From Isurus oxyrinchus (Eukaryota): a stretch of DNA of 64,000 nucleotides. Under the pieces are notes generated by a model. That model saw only the letters and a list, made by a program, of their open reading frames with translations. It was not told the origin of the DNA and did no database searches. The DNA is taken from NCBI GenBank assembly GCA_026770705.1, contig JANJGN010000025.1, positions 41,788,001-41,852,000 of the forward strand, written 5' to 3'. Within the stretch, counting starts at the first letter, position 1. The number at the start of each line of letters is the position of its first letter. Positions 13,127 through 61,721 of this stretch are shown here, piece after piece. The translations under genes were made by a program, and so were the position numbers.

Positions 13127-13282
13127 GGGTCAAAGTCCTGGAACTCCCTCCCTAACAGCACAGGGACTGCGGTGGTTCAAGAAGGCAGCTCACCACCAGC
13201 TTCTCAAGGGCAATTAGGGATGGGCAATAAATGCTGGCCTAGCTAGCGCTGCCCACATCCCATGAATGGATTAAGAAAAAAG
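13127..13282 (+). mobile_element. 3' tail fragment of the second LINE family
   Basis: gggtcaaagtcctggaactccctccctaacagcac...ttctcaagggcaattagggatgggcaataaatgctggcc matches 28770-28940. Confidence 0.85.
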
Positions 13283-18050: not shown

Positions 18051-18825
18051 TTTAAACTTTATTTGCCACTTATTAGCCCTCTGCAAACCCTAATGAGCTC
18101 CTTTTGATGATCTGAGCTGCCTCCTCAGAGTTCACAATCTCCTAGATTTCTTTCACATGCAAATTTAAGGCAATTCATGAAAACTACAAATCCGGGTCAT
18201 TCATACACGTCAAGGTCTCAGTACTGTTAGCGGAACAATCCATTCACCTCCTCACACCATCCTGTATCCCAGTGCAATTGTAGCCTTCCATTTACCCAGT
18301 CTCTAATTCATATTTTAGGCTAAGTTCCTCAACCCAGCATCTGTAGTAGGATTTCTACTGGAAGGGACTGCAGGTCAAAGGATGTGGGCCCAATCTCCAG
18401 ACTGCACCTCTTTCAAGGACTTCTCACACAAAGCATGTGGAGTCAGAGAGGAACCCCTCATGTGTGATATCCACAGGTCATCTCTGTGGTACTATACTAA
18501 AGTCCTTTGGAGGTTCAGGAACACAATTTATATTGCTTCCTGTTGCAGTGCACAGTTATGATATTACAAATGTTTGGGAAAACTGTTCTAAAGGTTACAT
18601 TTTTTTTCCAAAAGACCTTGGTCTGAGTTTAAACGCTGTTTCAAAATGGCTCCAAGCCACTAGACTAGAACTATCGATTTCAGATTGGGTCTTCTCTTCT
18701 GAGGGGACAAAAGACTATCCTTAATTTAATTCTGGTTCACTGGGGTCTCATCCAGGACATAACAAAGTTTTGTTGACGCCTCATTGTAAACATGTAAAAT
18801 GTGCCTTGACCAAGACAGGATGTAA

Positions 18826-19040
18826 GAACCCATCAAGTTCACTAAATGTCCTTTAGGGAAAGAAATCTGCCATCTTTACCTGGTCTGGCCTAAATGTGGA
18901 TGTAAGCCCACAAAATGTGGTTGACTCTTAATGGACTTCTGAAACGATGTGGCAAGCCACTTGGTTCAAGGGCAGTTAGGGATAGGCAACAAATGTTGGC
19001 CTTGCCAGTGACGCCCACATCTTATGAAAGAATAAATTTT
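18826..19040 (+). mobile_element. SINE (core plus LINE-derived tail), 5'-truncated
   Basis: gttcactaaatgtcctttagggaaagaaatctgcc...atgtggttgactcttaa...gcaagccac joined to gttcaagggcagttagggataggcaacaaatg; same as 61385-61595. Confidence 0.85.
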
Positions 19041-21242: not shown

Positions 21243-21425
21243 NNNNNNNNNNNNNNNNNNNNNNNNNNNNNNNNNNNNNNNNNNNNNNNNNNNNNNNNNN
21301 NNNNNNNNNNNNNNNNNNNNNNNNNNNNNNNNNNNNNNNNNNNNNNNNNNNNNNNNNNNNNNNNNNNNNNNNNNNNNNNNNNNNNNNNNNNNNNNNNNNN
21401 NNNNNNNNNNNNNNNNNNNNNNNNN
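21243..21425. other. Assembly gap (N run)
   Basis: 183 N bases. Confidence 1.
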
Positions 21426-23755: not shown

Positions 23756-26545
23756 ATGAGTAACAATGGTAAAAAGTCAAAGCTTAAGGCTCTTTATCTG
23801 AATGCACACAGCATTTGTAACAAAATTGATGAGTTGACGGCACAAATAGAAATAAATGGACATGACTTGATAGCCATTATAGAGATGTGGTTGCAGGGTG
23901 ACTAAGACTGGGAACTCAATATTCTAGGGTATTTGACCTTCTGGAAAAATAGGCAAAAAGGAAAAGGAGGTGGGGTAGCTTTGTTAATAAAGGAAGGTGT
24001 CAGTGCAGTGGTGAGTATTGATATAGGTGTAATAGATCGTGATGTGGAATCAGTTTGGGTGGAAATAAGGAATAGTGAGGGGAAGAAGTCATAGGTGGGA
24101 GTAGTCTACAGGCTCCCGAAGAGTTGCCTCACTGTAGGATAAAGTATAAATTGGGAAATAATGGAGGTGTGTAAGAAGGGCCCTACAATTGTCATGGCAG
24201 ATTTTAACCTGCATATTGACTGGACAAATCAAATTGGCTGGGGTAACATGGAAAACGAATCTGTATTGTGCATCAGGGATTGTTTCTTAGAGCAATATGT
24301 TGCAGAACCAACCTGGGGACAGGCTATTTTAGATCTAGTAATGTGTAATGAGGTGGGGTTAATAAGAGATCTTGTAGTTAAGGATCCCCTAGGGGGTAGC
24401 GATCACAACATTCTAGAACTTCAAATTCAGTTTGAGGGTGAGCAACTCCAATCTCAAACCAGTGTCCTCAACTTAAATAAGGGCAATTACAGAGGTATGA
24501 AGAAAGGGTTGTCTAAAGGGAAAATAGACTAAAGGGAAGGTCAGTGGATGAGCAGTGACAGACATTTAAGTAGATATTTCGTAACGCTCAGCAAAACTTT
24601 ATCCTGGTCAAAAAGAAGGACTCAATGAGAAGGATGAACCACCCATGGTTAACAAAGGTGGTCAAGGAAAGTATCCAATCAAAAACGAAGGCATACAAAA
24701 TGGCAAAATCTAGTGGTAGGCCAGAGGATTGGGAATTTTTTTTAAGAGCAAGCAGCGGATGAGTAAAAAGCTAATAAGGAGGGAGAAAATTGATTATGAA
24801 ATTAAATTGGCAAGAAATATAAAAACAAACAGCAACAGATTCTACGGATATATTAAAAAAAAGAGTAGCTAAAGTGAGCATGGGACCCTTGGAGGATGTG
24901 ACTTAAGAACTGATAACATGAAACAGGGAAATGGCAATAACTTAAACCAATATTTTGTGTTGGCCTTCACGGTGGAGGACACCATAAGCATTCCAAAGAT
25001 ATCAGATAAGCAAAGAGCTAATGGGAAGAAAGATCTTTTAATAGTCTCATCACGAGGGACAAAATATTTGAGAAACTAATGGGACTAAAGGCAGGCAAGT
25101 CACCAGCACCTGATGGCCTGCATCTAAAGCTTTTAAAGGAAGTAGCTGCAGATGTAGTGGAGGCACTGGTCGAAATGTTCAGAACTCATTGAATTCCGGC
25201 AGGGTCCCAGCAGATTGGAAAACTGCTAATGTGACGCGCCTGTTCAAGAAAGGAGGGAGACAAAAAGCAGGAAACTATAGGCTAGTCAGCCTAACATCTG
25301 TTGTTGGGAAAATGCTAGAGTCCATTATTAAGGAAGAAATAGCAGGACATTTAGAAAAGCTTAACACAATCAAACAGAGTCAACGTGGTTTTGTGAAAGG
25401 GAAATCATGTTTGACAAATTTGCTAGAGCTCTTTGAGGATATAACAAGCAGAGTTGATAAAGGGGAGCTGGTAGATGTAGTGTATTTGGATTTCCAAAAG
25501 GCATTCAATAAGGTGCCACATAAAAGGTTATTGCACATGACAAGAGCTCACAGTATTGGTGATGATGTCTTAGCATGGATTGAGAATTGATTAGCTCACA
25601 GAAGACAAAGAGTCAGGATTAATGGGTCCTTTTCAGGTCGGAAAGATGTGACTAGTGGAATGCCACAAGGATCAGTCCTAGGGCCTCAATTATTCACTTT
25701 CTATATTAATGACGTGGAGGAGGGGGCAGAGTGTAATGTATCCAAATTTGCTGACCATACAAAAATAGGTGGAGGGCATGTCATGATGAGGACATAAGGA
25801 ATCTGCAAGGGGATATAGACAAGTTGAGTGAGTGGGCAAAAACTTGGCAGATGGAGTTTAATGTACAAAAGCATGAGGTCATGCATTTTGGTAGAAAAAT
25901 CAAAAGGCAGACTATTATTTAAATTGAGAGAGACTCCAAAAAGTGCAGCACAGAGGGATCCGGGTGTTCTTGTGCATGAAGCACAAAAAGTTAGCATGCA
26001 GGTGCAGCAAGTAACCAAGAGGGCAAATGGAATTTTGGCCTGTATTGCTATTTGGTTGGAGTTTAAGAATAGGGAAGTCTTGTTACAACTGTACAGGGTG
26101 TTGGTGAGGCTGCACCTGGAGTACTGTGTACAGTTTTGGTCCCCGTATTTAAGAAAGGATATACTGGCATTGGAGGCAGTTCAAAAAAGATTCACTAGGC
26201 TGATTCCTGGATGAAGGGGTCAATTTATCAAGAACTGCTAAACAGGTTAGGTCCTTATTCATTGGAGTTTAGAAGAATGAGGAGGGATCTTATTGAAACG
26301 TACGAGATTCTGAGGGGGCTTGACAGGGTAGATGTTGAGAAGATGTTTCCACTAGTGGGGGAATCTTGATCTAGAGAACATAGTTACAGAATAAGGGGGC
26401 ACTCATTTAAAACTGAGATGCGAAAGAATTTCTTCTCTCAGAGGGTATTGACTGTCTGGAATTCTCTACCTCAGAGTTGTGGAGGCTAGATCACTGAAAG
26501 TATTTAAAGAGGAGGTAGATAGATTTTTGAAATATCGGGGAGTTG
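23756..26545 (+). pseudogene. CR1 ORF2 (APE endonuclease plus reverse transcriptase)
   Basis: LKALYLNAHSI.NK, DFN, LDLV, SDHN; WKTANV..LFKKG, NYR.VSLTS, YLDFQKAF.KV, PQGSVLGP, FADHTK, LEYCVQFWSP; many stops. Confidence 0.95.
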
Positions 26546-27769: not shown

Positions 27770-28940
27770 GTTTCCCGAGGTGAGGTGAGAGTGACTACCC
27801 TAACTTAAAGGCAGCATTTGGCCAAGTGTGGATCAAGGGGCCCTAGCAAAACTGGAGCCAATGGAAATCGGGGGGAAACTCTCCACTGGTTGGAGTCATG
27901 CTTAGCACAAAGGAAGAAGTTTGTGGTTGTTGGAGGTCAGTCATCTCAGCTCCAGGACATCACTGCAGGAGTTCCTCAGGGTAGTGTCCTCAGCGCAACC
28001 ACCTTCAGCTGCTTCATCAATGACCATCCTTCCATCATAAGGTCAGAAGTGGGGATGTTTGCTGATGATTGCACAAGGTTCATCATCTTTCGTGACTCCT
28101 CAGATACTGAAGCAGTCAATGTCCAAATGCAGCAAGACCTGGACAATATTTAGGCTTGGGTTGACAAGTGGCAAGTAACATTCGTGCCACACAAGTACCA
28201 GGCAATGATTATCTCCAACAAGAGAGGATTGAATCATCACCCCTTGACATTTAATGGCATCACCATCGTTGAATCCCTCACTATCAACATCCTGGGGGTT
28301 ACTATTGACCAGAAACTGAACTGGACTAACCATATAAATACTGTGGCTACAACAGCAGTTCAGGGGCTAGGAATCATGTGGTGAATAACTCACCTCCTGA
28401 CTCCCCAAAGTCTATCCACCATCTCCAAGGCGCAAGTCAGGAGTGTGATGCAATACTCTCCACTTGCCTGGATGAGTGCAGCTCCAACAACACTCAAGAA
28501 GCTTGACACCATCCAGGACAAAGCAGCGTGCTTGATTGGCACCCCTTCCACAAACATCCACGCCCTCCACCACTGACGAACAGTGGCAGCAGTTTGTACC
28601 ATCCACAAGATGCACTTTAGAAACTCACCAAGGCTCCTTAGGCAGCACCTTCCAAACCAATGACCACTTACATCTAGAACGACAAGGGCAGCAGACACAT
28701 GGGAACACCACCAATTTGAAGTTCCCCTCCAAGCCACTGAACATTCTGACTTGTTCCTTCACTGTCGCTGGGTCAAAATCCTGGAACTCCCTCCCTAACA
28801 GCACTGTGGGTGTACCTACACCACAGGGAATGCAACAGTTCAAGAAGATAGCTTGCTACCACCTTCTCAAGGGCAATTAGGGATGGGCAATAAAGGCTGG
28901 CCCAGCCAGCGACACCCACATCCTGTAAATGAATAAAAGA
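27770..28940 (+). mobile_element. 5'-truncated LINE of the second APE/RT family (RT to 3' tail)
   Basis: GVPQGSVL..TTFSCFIND, MFADDC, ILGVTIDQKLNW, WNSLP; tail ctcaagggcaattagggatgggcaataaa. Confidence 0.92.
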
Positions 28941-29369
28941 AAATTCCCAGTGTTCATTTGGCTCTCCCAAGTAAAACCAGTTCTTCACAGGTTTCCTCCC
29001 TTTACTTTCGAATCATCTGCCTGTAGGCACAGGTGACTGCCACTGAATCCCCAGCCACACCATCACTCCAAACCTTGAATTCTCATCTACTCCCTGAGTC
29101 AACCTCCCCACCCCCACTCAACTTATTCAGGAGACAGCAACCTTAACCATAGAAACTCCCATTGGCACTGTCATCACCAAATTCTACTGGCACTTGGACC
29201 TCAGGAAATTGATCTTAAATACGCTCCAACTTACTTTCAAATATCTCCTTATCCTTACCCCAGCTTACATCTGATTTCCTCCTGGAAAACTCTGCATCCG
29301 TCTGACATCAGTTCACTGCTGGTTCTTCAATCCCTTAGGGATGCTCTAAAAGGTGTTTCCCCAAAGTCG

Positions 29370-39599: not shown

Positions 39600-41812
39600 A
39601 AAGGATGCGGAGAGCAGGAGAGACTTCAGTTTAAACAGGGTGCGGAGAGTGGCGGGGACTTCAGTTTGGGTACCTTGCTGGGACTCTGCTCCAACAGCAG
39701 AGCAGACCTGCGGGAGACAGTGGGGAGCTGGGGAGCGCACTATTTCACTTGTTTCACTGTTTCAGCTGCTGGGAAGTTGCAGTCCAGGAAAAAAATAAAA
39801 AGCAACTGGGATGTCACAGGAAGTTAGTGAGTTGATTGGCCGGTAAGTGCTCAGGCTAAGGGACAGTGTGTGGAAAACCAGCTTAGGACAGGTGAGTTAA
39901 GGTAGATCTATAAATAAAAATAACTGAAACTTTAAAATAATAAACCAAAATTTAAAAACTTTAGAATTGAAATCAACCAATAAAGATAAAAAAAGCAATA
40001 AAAATAAAGTAATTTAAACAAACGTCTAAAACACGTACTTTGTAGTTAAGAAGCACATAATCTTTAGTTGTCAGTGGTACTAGCATTCAATAAAGACAGT
40101 AAATTTAGTATACATAGGAAGAAAGTAAGGAAAAAGCATACAACTCCGCAAAGGTGAGTGGCAGGACAGATGACTGGACAGAATATAAAGAATGGCAGAG
40201 AATGACCAAAAGATTAATCAGGAGAAAGAAATTAGGGTATGAGAGGAAGCTAGCTAGAAATGGCAAGAGTTTCTACAGGTACTTAAAAAGGAAAAGAGTA
40301 AGTAAATTGAGTGTTGGTCCTCTAGAGAGTGACGGTGAGGAGTTAATAGTAGATAATAATGAAATGACAGAAGAAATGAACAAATATTTTGCTTCTGTGT
40401 TCACTATATGGGATACAAAAAACATTCCAGTAATAGCTGCAAATCAGGAGGTGAACGTGAGAACTTGGTGAAATTGAAATCACTAGAGATACAGTATTGA
40501 GCAAACTAATGAAGCTGCGGGCTGGCAAGTGTCCGGGTCCTGATGGACTACATCCTAGGGTCTTAAGAGATGTGGCTAATGAGGTAGTAAATGCATTGAT
40601 GTTAATTTTCCAAAATTTGCTAGATTCTGGAAAGGTTCCATCAGATTGGAAAGTAGCAAATATAACCCCTCTATTCAAGAGAGGGAGGCAGAAAACAGGA
40701 AACTATAGGCCAGTTAGTTTGACGTCTGTCATGGGGAAGTTATTAGAATTGATCATTAAGGAGGTTATAGCTGGGCACTTAGAAGAGCTCAAGGCAATAA
40801 GGAAGAGTCAGCAAGGTTTGTGAAAGGAAAATCATGTTTAACCAATTTATTGGAGTTTTTTGACGGAGTAACATGCGCAATGGATAAAGGGGAGCCTGTA
40901 GATGTACTGTACTTGGACTTCCAGAAGGCATTTGATAAGGTGCCACATCAAAGATTACTATGGAAAATAAAAGCGCAGAGTGTAGGATGTAACACATTAG
41001 CATGGACAGAAGATTGGCTGGCTGGCAGAAAGCAGAGAGTATGCATGAATGGGTCTTTTTCTGATTGGCAGGAAATGACTAGTGGAGTCCCACAGGGGTC
41101 TTTACCTGGGCCTCAACTTTTAACGATTTGCATCAGTGACTTAGATAAGGGGAGGGAAGGCATGGTAGCTAAATTTGCAGATGACACAAAAATAGGTAGG
41201 AATGTATGTTATGAAGAGAACAAGAGGAGGTAGCAGATGGATATAGATAGGTTGAGTGAGTGGGCAGAGTCCTGGCAAATGGAGTTCGATGTGGGAAAAC
41301 GTGGAGCTGTTCACTTTGACAGGAAGAACAAAAAAAATCACAGTATTACTTAAACGGAGAACAGCTGCATAATTCTGAGGTGCAGAGGGATCTAGGTGTT
41401 CCCATACATGAGTCACAAAAAGTTAGTATGCGGGTACAGCAAGTAATTAAGAAAGCTAATTGAATGCTATCCTTTATTACGAGAGGGATTGAACATAAAA
41501 GTAAGGATGTTATGCTTCAGTTATACAGGGTATTGGTGAGACCGCACCGCGAATGCTGAGTGCAGTTTGGTCTCCTTATTTAAGGAAGGATGTAAATGCA
41601 TTGGAGGCGGTTCACAGGAGGTTTACTCGATTGATACCTGGAATGAGTGGGTTGTCTTATGAGGAAAGGTTGGACAGACTGGGCTTGTTTACACTGGAGT
41701 TTAGAAGAGTGAGGGGTGATTTGATTGAAGTATATAAGATCCTAAATGGCCTTGACAAGGTGGACATGGAAAGGATGTTTCCTCTTGTGGGTGAGTCCAG
41801 AACCAGGGGGCA
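39600..41812 (+). mobile_element. CR1 with a 5'UTR-like segment joined to mid-ORF2 (ORF1 and EN missing), 3' end cut
   Basis: 39625-39850 resembles 22312-22520; RT motifs PGPDGLHPRVL, YLDFQKAFDKV, PQGS, KFADDTK at 40150-41812. Confidence 0.85.
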
Positions 41813-44045
41813 CTATTACTAGACTAGTCTAATCCAGGGGCTCAGGGTAATGCTCTGGGACCCCGGTTCAAATCCCACCACAGCAGATGGTGGAATTTGG
41901 GTTCAATAAAAGCCATGAAACCATGTCAATTGACGTAAAAACCCATTTAGTTCACTTATGCACTTAAGGGAAGGAAAGCTACCATCCTTACCTGGTCTGG
42001 CCTACATGTGACAGACCCACAGCAATGTGGTTGACTCTTAATGCCATCTGAAATGGCCTAGCAAGCCATGTCAAACTGCTAAAAACAAGTCAGACACCTG
42101 GCATCACCCTACGCACCAAAGACAAGAACGGCAAACTCAGCCCTGCCGATCCTGCAAAGTCCTCCTTATGAACAAAATTGGGACAGCTGTCTCACAAACT
42201 AGTCAAGCAACAGCCTGACATATTCATACTCACAGAAACATACCTCACAGGTCACGTCCCAGGCACCACCATCACCATTCCTGGATATGTCCTGTCCCAC
42301 CAGCAGGACAGGCCCAACAGAGATGGTGGCGAAGTGGTATACAGTCAGAAGGGAGCTGAGAGTCCTTAACATCAACTCCAGATCTCATGAAGTCTCATGG
42401 CATCGGTCAAACATGGGCAAGGAAGCCTCCTGCTGATTTCCACATACTTCAACCCGTCAGCTGATGAGTCAGTGCTCCTTCATGTTGAACGTCATTTGGA
42501 GGAAGCACCAAGGGTGACAAGGGCACAGAATGTACTCTGTAACATCCATCACCTAGAGTGGCTCGGTAGCACTGTTACAGACAGAGCTGGCTGAGTCCTA
42601 AAGGACATAGCTGCTAGACTGGGTCTGCGGCAGATGGTGAGGGAACCAACAAGAGGGAAAAGTGTACTTGACCTGCCTGCATAGATGCATCTGTGGCAGT
42701 AGGAGTCACACCGCACAGTCCTTGTGGAGGCAAAGTCACGTCTTCACATTGAGGATACCCTCCATCGTGTTGTGTGGCAGTACCACCGTGCTAAATAGGA
42801 TAGAATTCAAACAGATCTATCAACTCAAAACTGGGCATCCATGAGGCGCTGTGGGCAGCAGAGTTGTATTCAACCACAATCTGTAACCTCATGGCCTGGC
42901 ATATCCTCCACTCTACCATTACCATCAAGACAGAGGATCAACCCTGGTTCAATGAAGGGTGCAGGAGGGCATGCCAGGTGTACCTAAAAATTAGATTTCA
43001 ACCTGGTGAAACTATAACACAGGATTACTTGCATGCCAAACAGCATGCAGCAAGCAAGAGACAGACAGAGCTAAGCGATTCTACAACCAATGAGTCAGAT
43101 CTAAGCTTTGCAGTCCTGCTGCATCCAGTTGTGAATAGTGGTGAACAATTAAACAATCCACTGGAGGCTTCACAAATATCAACATCAATGATGGGGGAGA
43201 CCAGCACATCGGTGCAAAAGATAAGGCTGAAACATTTGTAACAATCTTCCGCCAGAAGTGCCGACTGGATGATCCATCTCGGCCTCCTCCAAAGGTCCCC
43301 AGCATCACAACGCCAGTCTTCAACAAATTCAATTCACTCCACGTGATATCAAGAAGTGGCTGAAGGCTTTAGATACTGCAAACGCTATGGGTTCTAACAA
43401 TATTCAGGCAATGGTACTGAAGACTTGTGCTCCAGAACTTGCCGTGCCCCTAGCTAAGCTGTTCCAGTACAGCTACAACACTGGCATCTACCCAGCTATA
43501 TGGAAAATTGCTCAGGTACGGCCTGTACACAAAAAGCAGGACAAATTCAACCTGGCCAATTACTGCCCCATCAGTCTACTCTCTAAAAGTAAAGCAATGG
43601 AAGGGGTCATAAACAGTGTTATCAAGCGGCACTTGCTTAGCAATAACATGCTTGCTGACACCCAGTTTGGGTTCCGCCAGGGTCACTCAGTTCCTAACCT
43701 CATTACAGCCTTGGTTCAAACATGGACAAAAGAGCTGAACTCCAGAGGTGAGGTGAGAGTGACTGACTTGACATCGAGGCCGCATTTGACCAAGTGTGGC
43801 ATCAAGGAGCCCTAACAAAACTGGAGTCAATTGGATTCAGGGGGAAAACTCTCCACTGTTTGGAGTCATACCCAGCACAAAGGAAGATGGTTGTGGTTGT
43901 TGGAGGTCAATCATCTCAGTTCCAGGACATCAGGAATTCTTCAGGGTAGTGTCCTAGGCACCACCATCTTCTCATGGGCAGTTAGAGATGGCAACAATTT
44001 TGGCCTAGCCAGCAAAGCCCACATTCCATAAATGAATAACAAAAA
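41813..44045 (+). mobile_element. LINE with tRNA-derived/SINE-core 5' head fused to EN-RT (second family), internally deleted
   Basis: B box GGTTCAAATCCC at 41865-41876; SINE core ~41935-42068; then CKVLLMN..KLGQLSHKLVKQQPDIFILTETYL (APE), WKIAQVRPVHKK, NYCPISLLS, QFGFRQGHS, QGSVLG; then the family tail. Confidence 0.85.
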
Positions 44046-44194
44046 CAGGCAGAAGGAGTCAATGGTGTTAGAATAGGTGGAGCTCCATTGGGATAGAGAG
44101 AAAAGGAACTAAGAAAGGGCAGCTCCACAGAAATAAGGAGAAGAATGGGGTGACTGACTATCGAAAGATGCAAAGATATCCAAGAAGAGAGAGC

Positions 44195-44975
44195 ACCTCA
44201 GATACTGAAGCAGTCTATTTCACATGCAACAAGATGTGGTACCATACAATTTCCAGGCAATGACTAACCCCAACAAGAGAGAATATAACCATTTCCCTTT
44301 GACATTCAATGGCATTACCATCGTTGAACCACCCACCATAGACATCCTGGAGGTTACCATTGACCAGAACCCGAATTTGGCCAGCCATTTAAATACTTTT
44401 ACAAGAGCAGGTCAGAGATGGTGAATAACTCATCTCCTGACTCCCCAAAGCCTGTCCGCCATCTCAAGGCACAAGTCAGGATTTAGATGGATTACTCTCC
44501 ACTTGCCTAGATGAGTGCAATTCCAACAAATACTCAGGACGTTTGACACCATCCAGGACAAAGCAGCCAGCTTTATTGGCACCCCATCCACCACCATTAA
44601 TATGCACTTCCTCCTCCATTGATGCACAGTGGCTGCACTGGGTGTACCATTTACAAGATACACTGCAGCAACTCATCAAGCTTCTGTCGACAGTACCTTC
44701 CAAACCTGCAATCTCTACTAACTAAAGGCCAAGGGCAACAGACACAGAGGAACACCACCTCCTGCAAGTTCCCCTCCAGGTCACACACCAGCCTGACTTC
44801 AAACTATATCACTGTTCCTTCACTGTCACTGGGGCAAAATCCTGGGACTCCCTCTCTAACAGTACTATGGATGTACCAACACCACAGGGACTGCAGCAGT
44901 TGAACACAGCAGCTCATCACCACCTTCTGAAGGACAATCAGGACTGGGCAACAAATGCTGGCCTTGACAATGACT
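44195..44975 (+). mobile_element. 3' fragment of the second LINE family
   Basis: Colinear with 28095-28920; ends ttctgaaggacaatcaggactgggcaacaaatgctggcc. Confidence 0.85.
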
Positions 44976-59531: not shown

Positions 59532-59942
59532 CAGTGTTGAGTCGGTGAAAGTATTTTGGAAGCAATTATGCTTCCAAACTGTGAGTCAGTTTGGAAAAAG
59601 CTTGAGAAGCAGGTGGTTTATGTGGGAGCAAAATGAGAGCCAAGCCCTGGCCTGGGCAGTCACCCACCCCCTGCTCAATAATCACACAATACTTTACAGA
59701 GCACTTGGAAAATCTTTACAGACCCAAAGAGTCTGCAAGACCCTAGTTTGAAGATCACGAGACTGGACCAGTTATGCATCAGGTACACTCGAGATACTAA
59801 TCTACAAACAATCCACAGACATTTAACTCAACAGAGTCTGAGCTGGATTCAAATGCAAGATCCAAAAATGAAAGGTCAGTATTTAAATCCACTGCACCAT
59901 CCTAATTCACTGTCACAAGTTTATTACCAACACACTCTCCAG

Positions 59943-61595
59943 TAGATAATCCAGAGGTCCACGCTAATGCCCAGGGAACACAGATTCAAATCCCACCCTG
60001 GCAGCTAGTGGAATTTAATTTCAACTAATAAAATCTGGGAGTGAAAGCTAGTCTCGGTAATGATGACCATTTATTCACGGGATGCGGGCCTCGCTGGCTG
60101 GGCCAGCATATGTTGCCCATCCCTAGCTGCCCTTAAGAAGGTGGTGGTGAGCTGCCTTCTTGAACTGCTGCAGTCCATGTGGTGTAGGTATACCCACAGT
60201 GCTGTTAGGAAGGGAGTTCCAAGACTTTGACCCAGCGACAATGAAGGAACGGCAATATATTTCCAAATCAGGATGCTGAATGACTTGGAGGGGAACTTCC
60301 AGGTGGTGTTCCCATCTATCTGCTGCCCTTGTCCTTCTAGATGGCAGTGGTCGTGGGTTTGGAAAGTGCCGTCTAAGGAGCCTTGGTGAATTCCTGTAGT
60401 ACATCTTGTGGATGATACACACTGTTGCTACTGTGCGTCGGTGGTGGAGGGTGTGAATGGCTGTGAATGTGGTGCTAATCATGCGGCCTGCTTTGTCCTG
60501 AATGGGGTCAAGCTTCTTGAATGTTGTGGGAGCCACACTCATCCAAGCAAGCGGGGAGAATTCCATCACACTCCTGACTTCTGTCTTGTCGATGGTGGAC
60601 AGGCTTTGGTGAGTCAGGAGGTGAGTTACTCATCGCACAATTCCTACCCTCTGAACTGCTCTTGTAGCCACAGTATTTATATGGCTAGTCCAGTTCAGTT
60701 TCTGGTCAATGGTAACCCCCAGGATGTTGATAGTGGAGGATTCAGTGATGGTAATGCCATTGAATGTCAAGGAGCGATGGTTGATTCTCTCTTGCTGGAG
60801 ATGGTCATTGCCTGACACTTGTGTGGCACGAATGTTACTTGCCACTTGTCAGCCCAAGCCTGGATATTGTCCAGATCTTGCTGCATTTGGATATGGACTG
60901 CTTCAGTATCTGAGGAGTCGCGAATGTTGCTAAACATTGTGCAATCATCAGTGAACATCCCCACTTCTGACCTTATGATGGAAGGAAGATCACTGATGAA
61001 GCAGCTGAAGGTGGTTGGGCCGAGGACACTACCCTGAGGAACTCCTGCAGTGATGTCCTAGAACTGAGATGATTGATCTCCAACAACCACAACCATCTTC
61101 CTTTGTGTTAGGTATGACTCCAACCAGCAGAGTTTTCCCCGATTCCCATTGACTCCAGTTTTGCTAGGGGTCTTTGATGCCACACTTGGTCAAATACTGC
61201 TTTGTTGTCAAGTCAGTCACTCTCACCTCACCTCGGGAGTTCAGCTCTTTTGTCCATGTTTGAACCAAGGCCGTAATGAGATCAGGAGCTGAGTGACCTT
61301 GGTGGAACCCAAACCAGACATCAGTGAGCAGGTTATTGCTAAGCAAGTGCCGCTTGGTATCCCTTCCATTACTTTACTGATGATTGTCATAAAACGCATG
61401 TGGTTCACTAATGCCCTTTAGAGAAGGAAATCTGCCACTCTTACCTGGTCTGGCCAACATGAGACTCCAGACCCACAGCAATGTGGGTGACTCTTAACTG
61501 TCCTCTGAAATGGCCCAGCAAGCCACTCAGTTCAAGGGCACTTAGGAATGGGAAACAAATGCCTTGCCAGCGATGCCAACATCCCATGAAAAAAG
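59943..61595 (+). mobile_element. tRNA-derived SINE split into head (59943-60070) and core plus tail (61385-61595) by an antisense LINE insertion
   Basis: Head taatccagagg...gattcaaatcccacc...ggaattt matches 41830-41900; core plus tail matches 18826-19040. Confidence 0.85.
60071..61385 (-). mobile_element. 5'-truncated LINE of the second family
   Basis: FGFHQGHSAPDL, GVPQGSVLGP, MFTDDC, ILGVTIDQKLNW, WNSLP on the minus strand. Confidence 0.92.
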
Positions 61596-61721
61596 AAAGA
61601 GACAGTATAGCTGCAGCCAGAGATTGTGTCTACAACATCTCCTCTCCTGGGGTTTGGAGCCCTAGTTAGCATGCAGGCCAAAATGTCAATTCTCCCTCTG
61701 GTACTTTGCCCACTTACTCAC

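Follow-up and report, generated by a model that had tools for sequence, protein, structure and literature searches.

A tRNA-headed Zenon LINE in elasmobranchs as a candidate RNA polymerase III retrotransposon

Positions 41814 to 44045 of the window, the 64-kb stretch of DNA analysed here, are by their sequence a decayed copy of an elasmobranch Zenon LINE, which belongs to the CR1 group and has no ORF1. The order of tRNA-type head, SINE body, leader and endonuclease is almost certainly a trait of the elasmobranch Zenon family, and not of this copy alone. We propose that elasmobranch Zenon is an ORF1-less LINE of about 3.3 kb that RNA polymerase III (Pol III) would transcribe from its tRNA-type head and that would be the parent of its partner SINE. 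We give this whole chain a probability of about 0.5. One part of it, that a Pol III-made RNA serves as the template, we consider fairly probable. The first-pass annotation of this DNA had proposed a LINE family that opens with a SINE-type head of tRNA origin, lacks ORF1 and has a SINE matching it at both ends, and that core claim stands.

Build of the locus and membership in the Zenon family

The locus and its upstream flank are made up as follows.

40479..41813, plus strand: canonical CR1 copy, 3'-truncated, an upstream flank outside the element; 70-72% to the CR1 copies at 25049 and 51834
41814..41900, plus strand: head of tRNA origin that has lost its 5' part up to and including the A box; B box at 41865-41875
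41901..42068, plus strand: SINE body, which is the Zenon 5' UTR, with small private deletions; 84% and 78% to the SINEs of the window
42069..42156, plus strand: LINE-only leader of about 90 nt; residues 30-53 of protein P0029 align to it
42157..42740, plus strand: APE endonuclease (EN) region, decayed, end approximate; 7 of 23 phmmer matches at E ≤ 1e-10
42741..43971, plus strand: linker and N-terminal part of the reverse transcriptase (RT), decayed, with frameshifts and stops, ending at a microhomology deletion; RVT_1 at E 0.0038, below cut-off
43972..44045, plus strand: Zenon 3' tail with A-rich end, common to the SINE; holds the only T4 run of the copy, at 43998

The head is 76% identical over 78 nt to the SINE head at 59947-60024, and by eye it agrees with published Zenon 5' ends. 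Its B box had been noticed earlier and is the sole strict B box of the window. The tRNA-type head is incomplete in this copy, which has lost the A box together with ~19 nt from the start, and the remainder abuts the 3'-truncated CR1 copy at 41813/41814. Past 41814, 435 and 321 contigs in two runs carry on with CR1's own 3' sequence. ARAGORN and Rfam did not recognise the decayed head, and neither of the two head copies in the window folded better than shuffled sequences.

The claim that the SINE core runs to 42068 was confirmed: positions 41932-42068 share 84% identity with the SINE at 61391-61525 and 78% with the SINE at 18819-18959. The endonuclease start (KVLL) follows ~90 nt downstream, which leaves no room for an ORF1, as had been said. 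The supposed single EN-RT reading frame did not hold up for this copy, in which stops and frameshifts leave parts of EN-RT in each of the three frames; both domains are present but broken. A relative, protein P0027, matched Pfam Exo_endo_phos at E 0.0014, below cut-off. About 870 nt were lost at 43971 between two near-identical words of 9-12 nt, which are seen at both ends in an intact neighbour copy. Therefore, the RT of this copy ends before the catalytic motif.

The T4 run at 43998 is absent from the six other tails that we compared. The candidate's tail, two other LINE copies and both SINEs have A-rich ends, and two of the seven aligned tails are incomplete. No target-site duplication of 6 nt or more was found for the copy. 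Between its tail and the next Zenon fragment, at 44046-44195, lie ~150 nt of unique purine-rich sequence with no match elsewhere in the window. We rejected the reading of that next fragment (44196..44963, plus strand, 5'-truncated) as the completion of the candidate into one 3.15-kb element. The fragment is more diverged: it has 76% to two other copies, which are 85% to each other, whereas the candidate reaches 83-87%. The candidate's tail is accounted for by the microhomology at 43971. To judge by these figures, the fragment is likely a separate insertion and not the candidate's missing part.

Zenon elements have been described in five elasmobranchs as lacking ORF1, having poly-A tails and being still missing from repeat databases (Stuart et al. 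2026, PMC13343379, accessible part). The published elasmobranch elements there are CarCar_Zenon-1, RhiTyp_Zenon-1, ScyCan_Zenon-1, SquAca_Zenon-1/2/3 and HypSab_Zenon-1, and a "CR1-Zenon like LINE" is named in the whale shark in the accessible text of 10.1101/443036. We compared the first 400 letters of each of the 10 Zenon consensuses in Table S2 of PMC13343379. By eye, an A box lies 5-10 nt into all seven elasmobranch consensuses (five species, sharks and a stingray), and a B box, the SINE body and a short leader come after it. The head is absent, again by eye, in all three other vertebrate Zenons of the table (two hagfish, one coelacanth). A search of the same 400-letter ends with five exact B-box 11-mers gave three matches, all in shark Zenons; it is a rough control, since exact words miss variants. 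The family motifs matched Zenon rows of Table S2 only (five and six matches). In HypSab_Zenon-1, from the stingray, EN starts ~116 nt after the body (by eye), versus ~90 nt at 41814-44045.

The candidate belongs to this family by its head, body and leader, its lack of ORF1 and its A-rich tail; its agreement with the published consensuses over head, body and leader was read by eye and is not a computed identity. Compared with these consensuses, which are 2.9-3.3 kb long, the copy is decayed and internally deleted. The full-length consensuses show no unrelated 5' UTR and no ORF1, either of which would have spoken against the earlier claim. In the accessible text of PMC13343379, every Zenon, headless ones included, is without ORF1 and has a poly-A tail. 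Table S3 of that paper gives intact ORFs as 0/2313, 1/1419, 3/612, 0/59, 0/396 and 1/294, where we took the denominators as long copies and one cell is garbled.

The leader (42052-42170) and the consensuses have a conserved AUG that is out of frame with EN (by eye). At the end of the body, AUG-GCC-UAG stands in frame with EN in three of five species (white shark, catshark and stingray), and not in whale shark or dogfish (by eye). No usable in-frame AUG ahead of EN was seen by eye in the leader and the consensuses.

In the available main text of PMC13343379, the words "tRNA", "promoter" and "polymerase" occur zero times and there is one word starting with "sine"; the available supplement text has no "tRNA". 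A literature search outside most subscription journals, Repbase, Dfam and SINEBase found no paper on a tRNA-headed shark LINE, and the accessible parts of PMC8346653 and PMC4016481 hold no precedent for a tRNA-headed LINE. The Zenon family and its sequences are already catalogued, and only the head and its consequences appear to be unremarked.

Recurrence of the head-to-endonuclease junction

We aligned public contigs at 80% likeness to 42012-42166. The body (up to 42068) was joined to the leader (42116 or beyond) in at least 13 contigs in run X1 and at least 9 in run X14, among 15 of the 31 joint rows. These at least 22 contigs come from two organisms; their short sides are 20-30 letters, and the intervening letters are given for one of the 15 rows. 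Their depth is ~20-45 per contig, which is single-locus-like. In run X1, a contig of 107 nt spans 42039-42145 without a difference. A 118-nt contig of run X14, which is from another organism, covers 42039-42156 with five differences and no gap, and is an apparent orthologue. Because these contigs cross it, the join at 42068 is real DNA. Further contigs that align to the body extend as far as 42085-42092, and others that align to the leader extend upstream to 42091-42095. Where contigs come loose behind 42065-42069, with 48-162 of them at each place, their letters agree at 0.48-0.52, and SINE-tail letters are mixed with LINE-leader letters. Run X19, which is only guessed to be RNA, had no bridging contigs among 15 of the 31 joint rows and was counted neither way. 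The junction is thus not unique to this locus, and it recurs at many loci and in five species.

The same order is found in proteins. Three of the 23 phmmer matches to the EN piece carry translated body or leader ahead of EN: P0028 and P0035 have translated SINE body at their start (by alignment), and P0029 has the end of the body and the leader there (the leader by alignment, the rest by eye). The remaining 20 matches have no such part ahead of EN. Two weak shuffle matches, P0041 and P0044, were set aside as chance. A word-index protein search with the EN piece gave no match. DNA patterns had no match in viral, metagenome or GTDB contigs, and 19-residue matches at three viral loci were at chance level.

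Relatives of the RT, at 54-78% identity, came from gene models including five named shark and ray genera. The RT search gave 26 matches, with 10 named to those genera and 10 distant at 33-41%. Nine shark and ray models that are named as ordinary genes hold Zenon RT pieces (P0003, P0006, P0007, P0009, P0011, P0014 and P0018-P0020); these are likely annotation artefacts or cases of exonisation.

Origin of the partner SINE

The window holds these other copies of the family.

13127..13280, plus strand: short Zenon 3' fragment
18819..19036, plus strand: headless SINE copy with body and tail
27773..28942, plus strand: 5'-truncated Zenon copy with full tail
59935..60068, plus strand: head of a split SINE, start approximate
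60069..61380, minus strand: 5'-truncated Zenon copy, antisense inside a SINE of its own family
61381..61598, plus strand: body and tail of the split SINE

The SINE consists of ~310 nt from the LINE's 5' end and ~75 nt from its 3' end, joined directly with nothing between them. As had been reported, both SINEs pass directly to the LINE's last ~75 nt at the same point. Of the two copies first described as ordinary SINEs, the join of body to tail held, but the copy at 61385 is not headless, as its head sits at ~59935-60068. In this SINE (59935-61598), the head is split from the body and tail by the antisense insertion of its partner LINE. The antisense copy has no target duplication that could be seen by eye, and ~10-15 nt were lost instead.

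We consider it likely that the partner SINE is an internal-deletion derivative of headed Zenon, because the LINE departs from it within ~6 nt of the SINE's body/tail boundary. The alternative, which concerns origin only, is that a tRNA SINE with a Zenon tail is the older element, from which the LINE later captured head and body as a 5' UTR. SINE heads are usually independent modules, and the head is absent from non-shark Zenons, so it was gained at some point. Also, only RTE and Vingi LINEs were found to give 5' parts to SINEs in the accessible text of Kojima 2018 (PMC5786205). However, capture would need a coincidence to place the switch point so close to the body/tail boundary, where deletion predicts it. 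The candidate itself shows that deletions from the 5' part to the tail happen, and in other SINE forms the jump to the same tail comes earlier in the body, at 42050-42052. We regard capture as a doubtful origin. Both origins had been offered by the first-pass annotation, and deletion fits better than capture because the SINE, which has no private sequence, holds nothing that is absent from the LINE.

The SINE forms that break from the body at 42050-42052 are represented by 31 contigs in X1 and occur also in X19; they may be either repeated deletions from the LINE or secondary deletions of the SINE. A 9-letter word ~27 nt upstream of the shared LINE tail (60125-60165, minus strand) is identical to the SINE junction (18955-18970 and 61520-61540), and it is possible that it was the microhomology for the founding deletion.

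The partner SINE has the same plan of tRNA head, body and LINE-derived tail as SacSINE1 (Deu), HE1 (V), SINE2-1_CM (CORE), UCON3_CM and the MetaSINEs. We take its head, and that of Zenon, to resemble a class II tRNA-Ser, and its body is presumably unlike the V-SINE (HE1) and CORE-SINE domains. We compared the Meta, Deu and UCON3 bodies as they are printed in the available supplement of PMC7245038, and all three differ from the partner SINE body. The suggested resemblance to the Meta domain was not borne out: by eye, the printed 66-bp consensus is unlike 41880-42068, a 19-mer allowed three mismatches had no matches, and a bivalve primer had none. The Deu alignment (DeuSINE/SacSINE1) is unlike the body, and a 20-mer with three mismatches had no matches. 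The UCON3 SINE has only a 9-letter word in common with it, and a 17-mer with three mismatches had no matches. The SINE motifs themselves had no matches in the supplements of PMC5786205 and PMC7245038.

T-run depletion and the candidate polymerase

Sense-strand T4 runs, which can end Pol III transcription and had been named in the first-pass annotation, are scarce in the Zenon copies of the window. The candidate alone has one T4 run on the sense strand versus 15 on the antisense strand (P 0.062 versus shuffles). We then pooled 41814-43971 with 61006-60069, a set that was picked after the candidate-only test and that excludes the tail of the candidate, where its single T4 lies. The pooled sense strand has no T4 in 3,096 non-redundant nt. 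The expected number is 5.66 with mononucleotide shuffles (P 0.005) and 3.89 with dinucleotide shuffles (P 0.008), at 1,000 shuffles each; eight run classes were scored, and the material is decayed copies from one window. As a control, three CR1 copies have 18 T4 runs in 4,138 nt, versus 14-21 expected. A second Zenon set, the 3' parts of two other copies (1,660 nt), has one T4 versus 2.9-3.6 expected, and this is not significant (P 0.09-0.21). C3 and T3 runs are low too in the Zenon set, and the sense strand is T-poor, with 494 T versus 677 A.

In Zenon, TTT is rare relative to TTC, at 14:53, versus 668:752 for other NNT:NNC (P 2e-5); in the CR1 control TTT:TTC is 94:44 (P 0.57). Within the first 400 nt given in Table S2, T4 is found by eye in none of the seven elasmobranch Zenon 5' ends and in all three non-shark Zenons.

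In the model that we propose, Pol III would begin 5-10 nt ahead of the A box. Full-length copies would thereby have a set 5' end, and every new copy would have its promoter restored. Because the body has no T4, the polymerase would go on through the A-rich tail until the first T-run of the flank stopped it; behind the six tails that we checked, the first T4 comes at 1-456 nt. EN-RT would be translated from the uncapped RNA by a cap-independent route through body and leader, which is the weakest step. As a rule, RNA that Pol III makes and that carries no cap serves poorly as a message. Nor does the SINE body fold better than its shuffles (z -0.57), so it shows no IRES-like structure. EN-RT would next recognise the 3' tail that LINE and SINE have in common, and insertion would follow by target-primed reverse transcription, which is established for CR1-group LINEs. 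Finally, a deletion joining leader to tail would give a short Pol III RNA that keeps promoter and tail, and this would be the SINE, which would rely on mobilisation in trans.

In a human cell assay, Pol III-made retroposon RNAs had no need for ORF1p (Kroutter et al., PMC2666806, accessible part). This independence fits the model, but headless Zenons are without ORF1 too, so the absence of ORF1 is no pointer to Pol III. In the accessible text of PMC10886601, Pol II is taken to be the polymerase of LINEs, and Pol III to be weakly processive.

This view of LINEs leads to an alternative in which the retained head serves as a Pol II promoter or lies inside one. Zenon RNA would then be a normal message, capped and Pol II-made, and Pol III would make the short SINE alone. 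All characterised LINEs are held to be Pol II-made in the same text, a capped message would solve translation, and the sense strand is T-poor in any case. However, the lack of any T4 in 3.1 kb goes beyond composition and is left unexplained, as is the TTT:TTC skew that is absent from neighbouring CR1. The same is true of A and B boxes that are kept from stingray to sharks and of 5' ends that lie 5-10 nt before the A box in the consensuses of Table S2. We consider such use of the head by Pol II unlikely.

The labour may also be divided, with Pol III making the RNA that is copied, and EN-RT supplied in trans from capped Pol II read-through of copies in host transcription units. Both the T4 depletion and the fixed 5' end fit this arrangement, which does not need the translation of an uncapped RNA, and many copies are intronic (39% of the CR1-Zenon-like LINEs of the whale shark). 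Intact ORFs are rare, however (0/2313, 1/1419, 3/612 and 1/294 in Table S3), which would leave little EN-RT to be had from chance read-through, and dead copies would presumably dominate if there were no cis preference. On balance, this arrangement is quite unlikely.

Another alternative takes the head as a processing signal, at which RNase P would cut the 5' end of a Pol II read-through RNA, like the ribozymes that define the 5' ends of R2 and RTE. The 5' end lies near tRNA position 1, and self-cleavage at LINE 5' ends is known (Kojima 2018, accessible part). However, the first 7-8 nt of the white-shark consensus are by eye unpaired with the letters after the T-arm, which means no acceptor stem, and the T4 depletion would again be left unexplained. 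We hold processing by RNase P to be very improbable.

Lastly, a chance deletion that fused an unrelated SINE and LINE at one locus, or consensuses that are extension artefacts, would suit a copy with several private deletions, one of ~870 nt, but at least 22 paralogous contigs, three proteins and seven consensuses from five species share the order, which rules out a locus-specific fusion and leaves this reading next to no probability.

Relation to known elements

Tentatively, and with slightly less than even confidence, we suggest that elasmobranch Zenon may be an autonomous protein-coding LINE whose RNA is Pol III-made from a captured tRNA promoter. This 3.3-kb RNA would have been purged of T4 over the whole shark-ray split and translated without a cap, and the LINE would be the parent of its own SINE by one deletion. 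RTE-1_DAn and the elements related to it are also LINEs containing tRNA-like sequence (Kojima 2018, PMC5786205). They belong to the RTE clade, whereas Zenon is of the CR1 group, and in the accessible text of that paper their tRNA-like sequence was not studied as a promoter. Bov-tA, AfroSINE, SINE2-1_EC and the derivatives of RTE, Ingi, Vingi and R2 described there are likewise short elements made of a LINE's 5' and 3' ends. In those bipartite elements the tRNA head was added to the SINE after the deletion and the LINE is without a head, whereas in Zenon the LINE itself bears the head. Two-ended derivatives are reported only for RTE, Ingi, Vingi and R2 in the same accessible text. The TRIMs Helenus, Ajax and Cassandra (Kojima 2024, PMC10886601, accessible part) are likewise retrotransposons with a Pol III promoter derived from a small RNA. 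Unlike Zenon, they are non-autonomous LTR elements, and their autonomous partners are argued there to need Pol II.

The accessible text of Kojima 2018 also states that no LINE sequence matching the conserved SINE bodies was found. Zenon bears on that open question as a CR1-group LINE that supplies the head, body and tail of a SINE at once. The textbook split makes LINEs Pol II-transcribed and coding, and SINEs Pol III-transcribed and non-coding (PMC10886601, accessible part). If the proposal is true, a multi-kilobase coding Pol III retrotransposon would break this split and would be a natural system for the cap-independent translation of Pol III RNA. Zenon would then be an "autonomous SINE", and the head and body of a SINE would be traced to a living LINE. 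These implications have limits, as the Zenon family and its sequences are already published, the copy at 41814-44045 is dead, and the polymerase is a candidate only.

Repeat annotation will divide headed Zenon copies into "SINE + LINE" and misjudge both. The window includes an assembly gap of 183 N at 21243-21425, and at least 16.3 kb of it is self-repeated sequence, mostly CR1.
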